DNA from: a virus
Taxonomy: Duplodnaviria; Caudoviricetes
Virus record (IMG/VR): IMGVR_UViG_3300033068_001013
Location: 1,951-65,950 of that record
Strand: one strand, 5' to 3'
Length of the DNA stretch: 64,000 bases
The notes under the pieces were generated by a model. The model was given only the letters and a program-made list of their open reading frames with translations, was not told where the DNA came from and searched no databases. Below are positions 50,401 to 54,941 of the stretch, piece after piece. Each line of letters starts with the position of its first letter. The first letter of the stretch is position 1. A program made the translations under genes and the position numbers.

Positions 50401-50607
50401 TCAAATAAAATAGGCCCCCAAAAATAGGAGGCCTGCCAGGAGAATCAAAACAATTGATTGAACTCTTCTAGTCATTCTTAACCTTCTTCGGAGGAGGTTG
50501 TTCGACTTGGAGTGGTTTACGTTTGACAGCACGTTTCTTGGAGGAAGGCTTAGCTTTCCTTTTGCTGTCTTGGCTTCGTTACGAGATCCAAATCCCCAGA
50601 TTTTCAT
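50401..50607 (-). CDS. small membrane protein (start probably at MTRR)
   Basis: C-terminal IVLILLAGLLFLGAYFI. Confidence 0.4.
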   Translation of the reverse strand: MKIWGFGSRNEAKTAKGKLSLPPRNVLSNVNHSKSNNLLRRRLRMTRRVQSIVLILLAGLLFLGAYFI

Positions 50608-51302
50608 TTCTCTCCTTTCAATGTGCGAGCTTCAGTCGGCCCGGTTTGACCTTGGTAGCGTCCAACCTCACCGTAACCTTTGGTGGGCGGGGCGAACATC
50701 ATGAGGGGAACGAGTTGGACGTAGCGTTTGCCTGCTTCGATAACTTCCTCGGTGTGGCTGTGCAATTCGAGCGTGAGTTCGCCCTCGAATCCCGGATCAA
50801 CCCAACCAGCGAGAGCGTGGTCGAGACCTCGGCGTGCCGCACTCGATTTGAGATAAACGGAAGCGCAGAGGGGGTTGAGGAGGAATTGTTTGGGATTGTT
50901 CGCGTCAGCGCCCTGGAGGGCGGAGTAGAACGGGTTCTCGATTAGGGTTGGGGTTGCGGGGATGCGAACGTATTCGAGAGTGGAGGCGAGGAGGGCCACC
51001 CCAGGAACGAGAACCACTTTCGATGCCACGAATTTTTCCATCGGAGCCGCTTCGTGTTCCGAACCATCAGAAGCAAAGTAAGTGAGGGAATGGGGGGAGC
51101 GGTTGACGAATTCGTTTCCGAGTCGAAGGTCGATCGACGCTGGATTGACGAGTGAGGAGTCGTAGGGTTCAACGAGTTTACATTCTTGCGCGAGCAAGGC
51201 GATCATCCAATCGGGTAGGGTCATTTTAAACTCCTTCCATTTCTGCCCAATCACTTCCGACGGAAGCTTCGGCAGCACATACAAAACCGTCCGGGCACAC
51301 AA
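50604..51302 (-). CDS. dcd: dCTP deaminase
   Basis: VNPASIDLRLG, KSSAARRGL, AGWVDPGFEGELTLE, YQGQ.G motifs; true start probably MTLPDW (51224). Confidence 0.9.
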   Translation of the reverse strand: MCARTVLYVLPKLPSEVIGQKWKEFKMTLPDWMIALLAQECKLVEPYDSSLVNPASIDLRLGNEFVNRSPHSLTYFASDGSEHEAAPMEKFVASKVVLVPGVALLASTLEYVRIPATPTLIENPFYSALQGADANNPKQFLLNPLCASVYLKSSAARRGLDHALAGWVDPGFEGELTLELHSHTEEVIEAGKRYVQLVPLMMFAPPTKGYGEVGRYQGQTGPTEARTLKGEK

Positions 51303-54300
51303 CTGGATCGGCGAGAATTGTTACGGGAGCCTCCAACATTTCTTTAGCTATGTGGATGCACTCCTCCACGACTTCATCGGGAGGGTGGAATAGGACAGCA
51401 TCGTGAATGATGTTGATCAGCTCCCACCTTTCGAGCAATCCCTTTGAGTTCATTTCCAGAAGCTTATGACGAAGCATTCCATGGGCGTCATTGGCGGGTA
51501 GAAATGCCTTGGCTTTCTCAGCATCCTTTCCGCCTTTGGGTTTCCAACCAGTTAAAGTCTTCTCCCAACGAAAGACTTCATGGAATCTACGTACAGCCCC
51601 CCAACGAGAGATAAGCATCTTGCGGCGATCCGCTTCGAGGCAGATGGCTTCTTGCCATGCGAAGACCTTGGGGAAGAGGGACTTGAGTAGGTCGAGCAGA
51701 CGCTTGGCTTCAGTTTCGTTTTCGAAATTCTCCCTATTTTCAAAAAACATTCTCCTAGCGCCCATTCCAAAACCGATTCCAAGGATGCAATTTGCAACTA
51801 ACCTATCGGATACCGTAAATCTTTTTCTTGGCCCTGCATTTAAGATGTCATAGACTCGTGCCGTTCTAGTATTTCTTCCCCAGTCAAACCTTGTTTGATT
51901 AATTTGCGAGTTTGACTGTATTCGTATGGACTCGGAAATTCTCGAAGTGGGATCAGTTGATTTTGATACATAATCTTTAGAGTAATTCGACGATTTCTCA
52001 TTTGATCTTGTCGAGAAGCTAATCTTAGGTTTCCCGGTTCGTAATGACCATCGTTGTTGATTCGATCTATCTCCTGCATATGATAGGTTGGGTGAGGCAG
52101 ATTCTCTACTACCCATTGTATAAACTCCATCCGAGATTTGAAACGATTTTGTATTCCCCGTCCACCATAGCTCTTGTAATGTTTGTGTAAGGGGTTTGTA
52201 CAACGAGCAACTATAGCGTCGTATCGTCTTCCCAAGATAGCTGCGTGGAGTTGTGTACGAACCCCGTTTCGGATAAAGGAAGTCACTCGCCCAGCATTTA
52301 AGGCGTCTAACCAAGTCCACTTTTCTATTCCAGTTTCGTGACATTTGGCTAGAACTTTGCGATGCTTGCCTTCCCGTTTTATCTCCGGTGAAATGATTTC
52401 TATTGATCCGAATCGCTTGCCCACCATTTCCTGATTGTATGATCCCGACCATCTCGGATGCTGCTCTCCAGAAAGGAATTTTCCTGCCGTCATCTGTATA
52501 TACCTCATGGTCTATAGTAGCCCAAAGCCCATCGTATTTAGCAACTTGCTTAATACCTTGATAGACTACTCCATCATGGTTCACCCAGTCAAGCCCATCC
52601 CAAACTTTATCTGTAAGTTGCACCTGTTCAATAGGTTTTAGCCCATTAGATGTTAGAACCAGTTCACCTTCCGCTATGCAAGGCTTGGCCTTGAAGTCGC
52701 GGATGAATTTGTGGGCTTTTTTTATTTCACCCAAGAGGGCGCGAAGGTCGGTGTCGCTGAGATCGAGCGCGGTTTCGATTCCCTTCCACTTGACGAGGTG
52801 ACCGGTGACGAAGGAGTGAATATCCATGTCAGCGATCCGCATGTAGGTGGCGTCTTGGGCTTCGAGTCCGAGGGTACGAGCGTGATAGGCTCGAAAATCA
52901 ATCTCGACAAGTTTGTGTCCGGGCTCTGCTTTGATGCAGGCACGGAATTTTTTAGCAAGTTCGGCTCGACGTTTGGGAGTCGTGAGTACGTTTGGGTTAC
53001 GCGCGCCGAGTTGCCAAGTTGCGGGGCCGAAGGTGAAGGTGGTGCGGAGACGGCCGTCTGGTCCTGGATTCCAACCTCCAACAATGGAGCCGTCATCTTG
53101 AAGAGTGCCCGTGTAGGCATTGATCATTTTGGAATGGGCCCGATATTCGCGAGCAAGTTTGATCACGGGATCGCCAGTTTTGGCAGCAAGTTTTTCTAGT
53201 TCTTTATCACCTGTAGTGGCTTTGCCATCTTTGAAACGGGTTGGCATTGGGTAACCTTTGTAGGCGATGTAAGACTTGAGTTGGTCAGTGGACCGTGGAT
53301 TCCACTGAAGCTTGCGCGCGAAACGGCCATTAGGGAGTTGGATATAACCGAGTTTGAGGGCTTCGGTTATTTCAGGTGTCCAATCTTCGAGACCTTCTTG
53401 GATGGATTTGTAGACATCAGACCATTTGAGTTTGGATTTGATCTCTCTAGTAGATCCATTTTTGTTAATCTTAATGGTCGGAGCAAAGAGATCCGAACGA
53501 TGGGTTAGGATTCTTTCTCGAATATCCTCCGGTAACTTGGCGTATCCATCTGGAGGTACGTGAGATCCAAGATGGGTGGGGATAAGAGGTTGAAGGTCTT
53601 GTCCGAATTTAGTCACCTGATCCATTAGCCAGGTTCGGAAGGAGTTTAAGTTATCCCGATTTACCGGAATCCCTCGTCGCTCGACTGCTTGGAGAATAGT
53701 GTGAAAGCGTCGAGTAAAGTTATCATATCCTTGCCATGCATTAGCGCCATTGGGGGCAACAAGTCTCTCGGCATCTTTGGGAAGCTTGGACATGATTCGA
53801 TGAACAGCACAAACGTCTACGACTCCGTAGAATTCGAAGTGAGTGCCCGACATGTGTTTCCAAGGAAAGGTCCAACCATAGACCTGAGCAACGCCTTGAA
53901 GGTGTGCGGGGAGGTCGGGTTGGATGGAGTGCCACAACCAGAGAGTGTCATGAAGAGTACCTTCCAGAGTGACTCCGTGACGTGTTAAGATTGGATTATC
54001 AAATAACCAAGTGTTGTGTCCAACTTTAGCGTTAGGAGTTTTGAAGAGGGCTTTGATTAGCGGGACTGTTTCCGAATTCCACTCAACGGTCCAGCCCTCG
54101 GAATCATTTAACGCGAATTGGACGGTGGTGATGGCGGCTTTTTGAGTATCAAGTTCACCAGTAGCCCACTCGGAAGATTCTTCTTCCGGTTCCTCCTCAG
54201 TCGGAGTTGGATCTTCATCTCGACTGAATTCGTATAGCTCGTCTTCGTCTTCGAGGGCGGACTTGGAAGTTTCCAAGTCATAGGAAAGTAAGGCATCGGG

Positions 54301-54843
54301 GTTGGCCTGAACAGTTTTGAGAAGTTCGGCCAAGGCGGCAGTGCCTGTATGAACTCGAACTTCAGTCGAAGGGTCCACGCATGGAGCCAAACGACCTTGG
54401 ATGACGGAATAACAAGAAGAAATATCCAGCATCACCAGCCCAAGAAGTTTGGATTGTTGCGGGAAAATGCGATTCTCTGACTTGCTAAATGTTTCGAGAT
54501 CAAAGGTGCCGATACCCGGAATTCCCGCAAAGGTGGGCAAGCAAAAGCCACGCATATACTTAAGGGCCCGCTTGCCGCCGTAGTTCCCAGTGAGAGTTCC
54601 GAAAGCGTGATCGCCCATCATTAGAATAGCTTTGGGGGAGAGTTTTTGAATCTCTTCCATCAAAGTGTCCCGATAGGCGGAGAGTTCTTCGAGAGTATAA
54701 AATCGAGCCGATGGGGCGAAGGGGATGTATGGGATAATAGTATAAGTCTTCGCATCCAAACCCATCGACTGAGCTGTCGATGCCCATTTGGTTGTAGCAA
54801 TTGAGGACCACCGATAGCTGGTTATGATTAGCAGGTCAGACAT
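51226..54843 (-). CDS. polA: family-A DNA polymerase with N-terminal UDG-like domain, 3'-5' exonuclease and an intein
   Basis: Exo motifs YDLET, GHN..FD, HDT, YGVVD; Pol motifs IDFRAYHAR, KAK..(intein)..LGIGFGMG, IHDA; start coupled by TGATG at 54843. Confidence 0.9.
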   Translation of the reverse strand: MSDLLIITSYRWSSIATTKWASTAQSMGLDAKTYTIIPYIPFAPSARFYTLEELSAYRDTLMEEIQKLSPKAILMMGDHAFGTLTGNYGGKRALKYMRGFCLPTFAGIPGIGTFDLETFSKSENRIFPQQSKLLGLVMLDISSCYSVIQGRLAPCVDPSTEVRVHTGTAALAELLKTVQANPDALLSYDLETSKSALEDEDELYEFSRDEDPTPTEEEPEEESSEWATGELDTQKAAITTVQFALNDSEGWTVEWNSETVPLIKALFKTPNAKVGHNTWLFDNPILTRHGVTLEGTLHDTLWLWHSIQPDLPAHLQGVAQVYGWTFPWKHMSGTHFEFYGVVDVCAVHRIMSKLPKDAERLVAPNGANAWQGYDNFTRRFHTILQAVERRGIPVNRDNLNSFRTWLMDQVTKFGQDLQPLIPTHLGSHVPPDGYAKLPEDIRERILTHRSDLFAPTIKINKNGSTREIKSKLKWSDVYKSIQEGLEDWTPEITEALKLGYIQLPNGRFARKLQWNPRSTDQLKSYIAYKGYPMPTRFKDGKATTGDKELEKLAAKTGDPVIKLAREYRAHSKMINAYTGTLQDDGSIVGGWNPGPDGRLRTTFTFGPATWQLGARNPNVLTTPKRRAELAKKFRACIKAEPGHKLVEIDFRAYHARTLGLEAQDATYMRIADMDIHSFVTGHLVKWKGIETALDLSDTDLRALLGEIKKAHKFIRDFKAKPCIAEGELVLTSNGLKPIEQVQLTDKVWDGLDWVNHDGVVYQGIKQVAKYDGLWATIDHEVYTDDGRKIPFWRAASEMVGIIQSGNGGQAIRINRNHFTGDKTGRQASQSSSQMSRNWNRKVDLVRRLKCWASDFLYPKRGSYTTPRSYLGKTIRRYSCSLYKPLTQTLQELWWTGNTKSFQISDGVYTMGSRESASPNLSYAGDRSNQQRWSLRTGKPKISFSTRSNEKSSNYSKDYVSKSTDPTSRISESIRIQSNSQINQTRFDWGRNTRTARVYDILNAGPRKRFTVSDRLVANCILGIGFGMGARRMFFENRENFENETEAKRLLDLLKSLFPKVFAWQEAICLEADRRKMLISRWGAVRRFHEVFRWEKTLTGWKPKGGKDAEKAKAFLPANDAHGMLRHKLLEMNSKGLLERWELINIIHDAVLFHPPDEVVEECIHIAKEMLEAPVTILADPVVCPDGFVCAAEASVGSDWAEMEGV
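51790..52680 (-). mobile_element. intein (297 aa) in PolA motif B
   Basis: CIAEGELV block A, ATIDH block B, VYDIL block F, LVAN/C block G; extein rejoins as KAKP-CILGIGFGMG. Confidence 0.9.
51840..52508 (-). CDS. HNH homing endonuclease nested out of frame in the intein
   Basis: YGGRGI and EIDRINNDGHYEPGNLRLA..Q.RNRR motifs; frame offset by 1 from the Pol; GAGG SD 9 nt before ATG 52493. Confidence 0.88.
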   Translation of the reverse strand: MRYIQMTAGKFLSGEQHPRWSGSYNQEMVGKRFGSIEIISPEIKREGKHRKVLAKCHETGIEKWTWLDALNAGRVTSFIRNGVRTQLHAAILGRRYDAIVARCTNPLHKHYKSYGGRGIQNRFKSRMEFIQWVVENLPHPTYHMQEIDRINNDGHYEPGNLRLASRQDQMRNRRITLKIMYQNQLIPLREFPSPYEYSQTRKLIKQGLTGEEILERHESMTS

Positions 54844-54941
54844 CACCACCATCCTTGTTCACTGCCGATTAAGTAGATTAGCCAAGCCACGCATAAGAGA
54901 TATAGAAGTATGGAAAAATTTCGACGAGTGTTTGAAGACAT
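54843..54941 (-). CDS. 32-aa TM peptide
   Basis: Manual translation MSSNTRRNFSILLYLLCVAWLIYLIGSEQGWW; stop overlaps the Pol ATG. Confidence 0.45.
   Translation of the reverse strand: MSSNTRRNFSILLYLLCVAWLIYLIGSEQGWW

Follow-up and report, generated by a model that had tools for sequence, protein, structure and literature searches.

The stretch of DNA analysed here, further called the window, comprises 64,000 nucleotides (positions 1,951 to 65,950) of the uncultured virus record IMGVR_UViG_3300033068_001013 (Caudoviricetes). It covers nearly all of that record, which has 65,950 bases, is an estimated ~96% complete and encodes terminase, portal, major head and tail-spike genes. On its minus strand lies a gene for a family-A DNA polymerase (PolA) that is interrupted in frame by an intein, and inside the intein a second open reading frame (ORF), shifted by +1 with respect to the polymerase frame, encodes a candidate homing endonuclease that resembles the HNH type (Table 1). 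The polymerase gene is the sole PolA gene of the phage (one PF00476 match in its whole own genome) and therefore the intein must be removed.

Table 1. Features of the polymerase locus, with positions in the window (dN/dS, ratio of non-synonymous to synonymous substitutions; pLDDT, predicted local distance difference test; SD, Shine-Dalgarno).
Feature	Position	Strand	Evidence
Family-A DNA polymerase precursor ORF, 1208 aa	51226..54852	-	ORF list; Pfam PF00476 (DNA_pol_A) E 2.2e-15
N-extein, 724 aa, C-terminal end R-D-F-K-A-K-P in motif B	52681..54852	-	junction in intein-free relatives
Class-1 intein, 297 codons: Cys1, block B T-I-D-H, C-terminal L-V-A-N	51790..52680	-	sequence and 42 relatives
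N-terminal splicing part, residues 1-88, blocks A and B	52417..52680	-	AlphaFold2 pLDDT 96-98; Foldseek
Polymerase-frame linker, residues 89-267, stop-free, S/R/T/K-rich	51880..52416	-	pLDDT ~40-50; composition; dN/dS 1.12
Nested ORF, 222 aa and stop, offset +1; HNH-like homing-endonuclease candidate	51840..52508	-	PHROG, AlphaFold2, BFVD, wobble pattern
GAGG SD-like tetramer, from intein His-Glu-Val codons	52503..52506	-	9 nt before second ATG
Second ATG of nested ORF (Met6; 217-aa product), likely start codon	52491..52493	-	GAGG spacing
Nested core motif, residues 146-172, E-I-D-R-I-N-N-D-G-H-Y-E-P-G-N-L-R ... N	51993..52073	-	conservation
C-terminal splicing part, residues 268-297, blocks F and G, terminal Asn	51790..51879	-	pLDDT 96-98 from residue ~270
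C-extein, first residue +1 Cys (51787..51789), C-I-L-G-I-G-F-G-M-G	51226..51789	-	sequence

The intein corresponds to residues 725-1021 of the polymerase precursor and is inserted in the codons of the O-helix (motif B). It starts with C-I-A-E-G-E-L-V, has its block B at residues 55-58 and ends with R-V-Y-D-I-L-N-A-G-P-R-K-R-F-T-V-S-D-R-L-V-A-N, after which the Cys of the C-extein follows. The elements by which class-1 inteins are recognized are present: Cys1, a block B of the form T-x-x-H, and a terminal Asn with Cys as the first residue of the C-extein. Across the 42 intein relatives C1, T55, H58, D278, G283 and N297 are invariant, and the motif R-V-Y-D-I-x-N-A-G-P-x-x-R-F-T-V-S of the C-terminal splicing part is kept among relatives. 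An AlphaFold2 model of the intein is confident for residues 1-88 and 270-297 and of low confidence in between (Table 1), and a Foldseek search with the confident part matched NpuDnaE (4kl5; prob. 1.00), gp41-1, Ssp DnaB and Mtu RecA (probability 0.98-1.00). The polymerase frame is predicted to encode a HINT-fold mini-intein with a disordered linker of ~180 residues. The first-pass annotation, which was made from the sequence alone, had described an intein frame that stays open for 297 codons but reads as S/R-rich nonsense in its middle; the boundaries are exact, and linker residues 89-267 consist for 55% of S, R, T, K, N and Q and are predicted to be disordered.

The nested ORF runs from the block-B His codon into block F and overlaps the intein over ~670 nt. 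Its first ATG (52508..52506) and the His codon of block B have two bases in common (gac-cAT-Gag), and no SD-like sequence was found upstream of it. The second ATG and the GAGG that precedes it are both supplied by the intein codons for H-E-V-Y-T-D-D. That the shifted frame holds an ORF of 217-222 aa with its own GAGG, and that its first ATG overlaps the His codon, had been claimed beforehand and is borne out to the base. Most relatives have GGAGG or GAGG 9-10 nt before their own nested start: the intein codons for K-E-V-I-x-Y-D spell the SD sequence, an ATG in the +1 frame follows, and a nested-frame stop lies just upstream. In mini-inteins from which the nested gene is wholly lost the GAG-GT codons are mostly absent, and the association of these codons with the presence of the nested gene is, given the small sample, only suggestive. 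As to a promoter, the TACTAT hexamer that had been put forward as a -10-like box in block B is indeed there, but a sigma-70 pattern scan finds no promoter-like site at it and the frequency of sites in the region equals the level in shuffled sequence. The simplest reading is that the nested protein would be translated by internal initiation on the polymerase mRNA.

A different route to the protein would be programmed ribosomal frameshifting into the +1 frame and back, which would yield a conventional, fused intein-endonuclease. Both frames are open on the same strand and programmed frameshifts do occur in phages. Yet a nested-frame stop precedes the block-B His codon, by 5 nt in the window and by 32-35 nt in most relatives, and each such stop is followed by an SD sequence and start of the nested gene's own; two precise shifts would be required, the RNA structure around the nested start is unremarkable (z -0.24), and related nested genes stand at +2 in a second intein family (see below). 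We regard this explanation as extremely unlikely and rejected it on account of the upstream stops, the own SD sequence and start, and the need for two shifts.

The overlapping layout recurs widely. A blastn search (distant mode) of deposited phages with the polymerase gene gave no match. The best tblastn matches of the nested protein in deposited phages fall inside annotated DNA polymerase genes, those of Streptococcus phage Javan113, Gardnerella phage vB_Gva_AB1 and Salmonella Jerseyvirus LP31; each of these three polymerase coding sequences is uninterrupted, and the matching stretch is out of frame with it. A scan of viral contigs with the single nested protein recovered no relative, and an alignment-based query was required: two alignment-driven scans yielded 160 loci with 120 distinct nested-protein cores, of which 106 lie within an open host frame (90 at offset +1, 16 at +2) and 14 are free-standing. 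The otherwise open frame contains 3-34 stops in 13 of the 15 free-standing loci and a single stop in each of the other two (L095, L096). Among the best 120 intein-bearing polymerases of the protein database none has the nuclease in frame, and half of them (60/120) share the 'nonsense' polymerase-frame middle of the window, which reads as the shadow of the same overlap. An in-frame fusion was also sought among longer proteins and none was found, which is weak evidence of absence. One protein of 469 aa on a short contig (P0163) joins the nested frame to the C-terminal intein block and the C-extein; it could be an indel variant or a broken gene.

The openness of the polymerase frame was compared to chance by keeping the nested amino acids fixed and redrawing the synonymous codons 20,000 times. 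The resampled ORFs had on average 12-13 stops in the polymerase frame and not one of the 20,000 was stop-free; the observed number over the nested ORF is 0 in the polymerase frame and 22 in the third frame. The polymerase frame is kept open by selection. These results also bear on the possibility that the HNH was in frame in a canonical intein and was separated by an indel from sequencing or assembly, a frameshift error that the first-pass annotation itself had named as a finding that would overturn the overlapping layout. The source is a metagenome-derived viral contig, but the same layout is found in independent phage records and hence is no frameshift error: the offset is +1 in 90 distinct sequences, isolate phage genomes included, an in-frame version was encountered neither in the best 120 intein-bearing polymerases nor among longer proteins, and a chance error could not erase the 12-13 expected stops. 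The probability of an artefact is practically nil, and it was excluded on the basis of the recurrence in deposited phages and of the 106 of 120 cores in open host frames.

To separate the selection on the two frames we used 21 distinct relatives of 309 codons. Their polymorphism is highest at the third polymerase codon position in the N-terminal splicing part (96% of sites), and within the overlap the maximum is found at polymerase position 1, the third position of the nested codons (86%, versus 56-59% at the other two positions). The comparison of dN/dS in both frames, which had been proposed beforehand as a check, gave a median pairwise value over the overlap of 0.16 for the nested frame, 1.12 for the polymerase frame and 1.25 for the unused frame; the polymerase-frame value of the splicing part is 0.09. 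For the lineage of the window itself we applied parsimony to the protein of the closest relative (P0001; 86-93% extein identity). It differs from the window at 70 polymerase-frame positions in the overlap; for 59 of these one base change, confined to one codon position, suffices as explanation, with 51 at polymerase position 1 and 8 at position 2. No fewer than 46 of the 51 position-1 changes would be silent in the nested frame (binomial p 9e-9). The changes thus lie mostly at the nested wobble position, so the nested gene is conserved in the window lineage too. The substitution patterns show that the nested frame is under purifying selection and that the polymerase frame is constrained only to stay open. 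The earlier claim of dual coding over about 670 nt holds for the overlap as such, but not for folded protein: because the linker is predicted to be disordered, true double coding of folded protein would be limited to ~45 codons, at both ends of the overlap, and the remaining ~180 polymerase-frame codons would be spacer.

The distribution of the intein is patchy. The closest polymerases (~53% identical, 870-950 aa) have no intein, and after P0001 the closest inteins sit in polymerases without detectable N-extein similarity. In ~30 intein-free relatives RDFKAKP is directly followed by (A/T/S)ILG(I/V)GF, where the window has RDFKAKP, the intein and CILG; relative to these empty alleles the insertion is precise and in frame. 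Within motif B the same intein family occupies at least three positions, and it is also found at a further PolA site and in a helicase. The CIAEGELV intein (junction at 52680 in the window; L002, L013, L017 and others) stands one, two or five residues after a conserved Lys, and its position varies by polymerase clade. In the superfamily-2 helicase (L048, L052, L055; P0064) the intein follows ...P-G-K-D-N and contains a nested +1 gene or its remnant; the presence of the same intein family in this host argues that the element has switched host gene. Shortened inteins of 134-184 codons still contain, in the +1 frame, what remains of a nested gene; the smallest ones, of 122-143 codons, have no such remnant. 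This pattern of invasion, decay and loss is as would be expected of a homing element. One relative (P0147) has an empty motif-B site that already reads P/C-I-L-G, with the Cys at the +1 position of occupied alleles, and has an insert elsewhere; this Cys could be the footprint of a precise intein loss.

Some loci deviate from the common layout. A second intein family in motif B, found in Salmonella phage LP31 (L001) and in L071 and L078-L083, has N-termini C-L-H-R-H or C-F-G-P-E-T and carries a related nested gene at +2 and not at +1, which suggests at least two independent captures or a change of frame. One relative looks like a fractured polymerase (L067:1060-4226): its N-terminal ORF ends after 112 codons of intein, a complete nested gene of 243 aa comes next, and the C-terminal intein half and the C-extein are in a third frame; this may be a split-intein intermediate or a frameshift. 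Four loci (L073-L076) have a CIAEGSLV intein at another PolA site, after ...N-R-T-G-R-W (start 3001 in L074-L076); its host frame runs for 94 codons before it closes, and ~408 codons downstream comes the C-terminal block. Nothing related to the nested protein was detected in these four, so another inserted gene or a split intein is possible.

With respect to the nested protein, AlphaFold2 gave a mean pLDDT of 88 and three modules: a small beta-barrel (~residues 22-76), a core (84-176) and a helical C-terminus (183-222). Its PHROG matches (phrog_374, 4e-25; phrog_3377, 3.5e-24) are to families annotated as HNH endonuclease, and many of its 103 structural matches in BFVD bear that name as well. 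Among 37 relatives D148, R149, Y156 and N160 are invariant and R162 and N172 are conserved in at least 90%, and the nested ORF of the window retains every invariant residue. Of the residues that mark HNH/His-Me nucleases, the core has the metal-binding Asp (D148) and the conserved Asn residues (N160, N172), and a Tyr is found in the loop in 111 of 112 distinct cores.

Given the anatomy of the intein, its recurrence, the selection on each frame, the predicted folds, the patchy distribution and the precise insertion site, we consider it likely that the sole polymerase of the phage harbours a mobile class-1 mini-intein, that a formerly free-standing HNH-like gene has invaded its endonuclease slot at +1, and that the protein of this gene makes the element home. 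The polymerase frame would be translated into the N-extein, an N-terminal splicing half of 88 residues, a spacer of ~180 residues, a C-terminal splicing half of 30 residues and the C-extein, and the HINT domain would excise itself together with the spacer to leave an intact polymerase. The same mRNA, read from the internal SD/ATG pair that is formed by intein codons, would yield a separate protein of ~25 kDa with a beta-barrel, a His-Me-like core and a helical C-terminus. Most likely this nested protein would cut or nick intein-less polymerase alleles near motif B during co-infection, and repair would then copy intein and nuclease together. Selection would preserve the sequence of the nested protein, and in the polymerase frame it would forbid stop codons only. 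In outline this is what the first-pass annotation had proposed, an intein with an endonuclease-like gene in a different, overlapping frame, and the recurrence, the substitution pattern and the predicted folds all agree with it.

A number of points weigh against this proposal: i) we infer the splicing, the separate translation and the nuclease activity with its target; ii) the penultimate residue of the intein is, as had been noted earlier, Ala (L-V-A-N/C) and not His; iii) the test of the window lineage relies on a protein of P0001 and not on its DNA; iv) sequence searches of Pfam, NCBIfam and PDB with the nested protein gave nothing significant, and a Foldseek search against PDB came back empty; v) a wide fold search brought up, as the only His-Me match, PacI (3m7k_A) with a Z of 6.4 (root-mean-square deviation 2.6 A over 78 residues), tied with an unrelated chain; vi) the general-base His expected at the end of strand 1 is absent, an Arg taking its place (DR in 111 of 112 distinct cores); vii) of the four zinc-ribbon cysteines that the other relatives have, three are lost in the sub-group to which the window belongs together with L004 and L005; and viii) the usual SD/ATG pair of the family, at intein nt 146, is gone from the window (TAC for TAT, then TAG). 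Regarding the second point, a penultimate His is common but not universal in class-1 inteins, and since the relatives have H, S, A, L or F at this site in otherwise intact polymerases, the family tolerates the loss of His.

The points on fold and active site could also be taken to mean that the nested protein is real and selected but no nuclease, for instance a degenerate, His-less His-Me/helix-turn-helix DNA binder that acts as a regulator or as the targeting partner of another nuclease. Besides the Arg at the His site, the curated HNH models (PF01844, PF13392 and relatives) leave the window protein unmatched, with HNH_3 being touched by only 2 of the 37 relatives (E 0.05), and the structural tie to the His-Me nucleases is weak, a second structural aligner having found no His-Me match. 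Moreover, in one relative (P0169) the nested module neighbours a canonical HNH_3 domain, a position that would suit a DNA-binding accessory, and His-Me groups without the His and without a Tyr substitute are regarded as inactive (PMC5714182). PacI, however, also lacks the general-base His and uses a loop Tyr instead (PMC5714182), and the nested cores have a nearly invariant Tyr in the same loop together with conserved Asp and Asn, so by analogy the loop Tyr could substitute for His as in PacI. In addition, the element behaves as a mobile unit, for which a DNA break is needed, and the intein contains no other nuclease. A non-nuclease is in our view unlikely. PacI (PDB 3m7k/3ldy), with its Tyr in the loop between two strands, is the best meaningful fold match of residues 84-176, though the match is below the safe Z and sequence similarity is undetectable; PacI is moreover a restriction enzyme that forms dimers and has two zinc sites, whereas most zinc ligands are lost from the window protein. 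The designation 'HNH nuclease' in the first-pass annotation is supported by the PHROG and BFVD names, but not by Pfam or NCBIfam, nor by the catalytic residue, where His has become Arg. Because of these names, the weak PacI match, the Arg for His and the conserved loop Tyr, nuclease activity is plausible but unproven. A bolder version, which we find doubtful, would be that the nested proteins form a large uncharacterised His-less His-Me family with a PacI-like loop Tyr, that they are the first homing endonucleases of this kind, and that their expression is gated by ribosome traffic in the polymerase frame. If so, the nuclease would be made only when translation of the polymerase is low.

The lost start and the lost cysteines raise another alternative, that the nested ORF of the window is a recently silenced relic in a non-moving mini-intein with a long junk spacer; decay does occur, as the relatives with shrunken nested-gene remnants testify. 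The 222 codons are nevertheless intact with all invariant residues kept, a replacement start pair (GAGG, 9 nt, ATG) is present, and the differences with P0001 are overwhelmingly silent in the nested frame. Furthermore, L004 and L005, which are 52-54% identical, have lost the same cysteines, which indicates that this loss is old and tolerated. We judge a relic highly unlikely, and keep to a mobile intein with a nested endonuclease candidate.

Two observations concern the polymerase gene and its surroundings. Motif C of the polymerase (51226-51500) reads I-I-H-D-A-V where H-D-E is usual; as H-D-A occurs in at least 20 of 43 related polymerases, it is a trait of the clade rather than a defect of this copy. 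In the mechanical ORF list, the ORF that comes next downstream (50604..51302, minus strand) has 77 nt in common with the 3' end of the polymerase ORF, and its true start probably lies further in.

The layout itself is already known, from 1998 and from 2025-26, for other endonuclease families, and earlier work describes intein endonuclease genes that are out of frame or antisense. Among the closest cases are inteins of actinobacteriophages in which reading frame 3 holds a homing endonuclease that is endonuclease VII-like (Gosselin, Arsenault and Gogarten, bioRxiv 10.1101/2025.01.02.630785): there too, an out-of-frame endonuclease ORF occupies the slot on the same strand, the host frame is open and unstructured, and the authors propose that a free-standing endonuclease invaded the intein. 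The endonuclease type and the frame offset differ, the window having an HNH-like protein of three modules with the DR/Tyr core, and the layout that is called rare in that paper is found in at least 106 distinct viral sequences of the family described here and in about 60 of its 120 best protein matches. In the cyanobacterial DnaX intein (Gorbalenya 1998, as cited in later work; Phillips, DeSimone and Gogarten, bioRxiv 10.64898/2026.09.14.751524) splicing domain and endonuclease likewise use overlapping frames of their own, there are coexisting homologous mini-inteins, the endonuclease frame has a low and the host frame a raised dN/dS, and a secondary invasion has been proposed as the origin; that case, however, is cellular, with a LAGLIDADG endonuclease at +2 in dnaX, whereas the window is from a phage and has an HNH-like protein at +1 in PolA. 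The ShiLan insertion of a mycobacteriophage methylase hides an HNH endonuclease that is out of frame (Arsenault et al., Genes 2025, PMC11855218). It resembles the window in that an HNH-type ORF stands in an alternative frame of an insertion that is stop-free in the host frame, and the route of translation poses the same question, but it has no splicing domain and no detectable ribosome-binding site, where the window has complete intein blocks and an SD-like sequence. Finally, in fractured genes with split inteins a free-standing endonuclease gene lies between the halves (Dassa et al. 2009, PMC2677866), at the endonuclease insertion point of the intein, and L067 looks like such a case; those endonucleases are GIY-YIG and Vsr-like, and the window differs from them by its continuous host frame and its contiguous intein, which is predicted to splice in cis. 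Our literature searches retrieved no description of the nested PolA/HNH-like family. Three traits are specific to the copy in the window: its start site is relocated, its zinc ribbon is lost and its penultimate intein residue is Ala.

The family is relevant to gene callers and to annotation based on dN/dS, as public records label such genes just 'DNA polymerase', and it offers a clean case, from nature, of overprinting where the sole constraint on one of the frames is that it stay open. The core with Arg for His and an invariant Tyr raises a small enzymological question. Since relatives occur in cultivable phages of Salmonella, Escherichia and Streptococcus, splicing, separate translation and homing are directly testable. 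With these findings, a type of intein that is still called rare in the literature gains a very large, phage-wide family, and they support the view that inteins gain endonucleases through invasion by free-standing genes.

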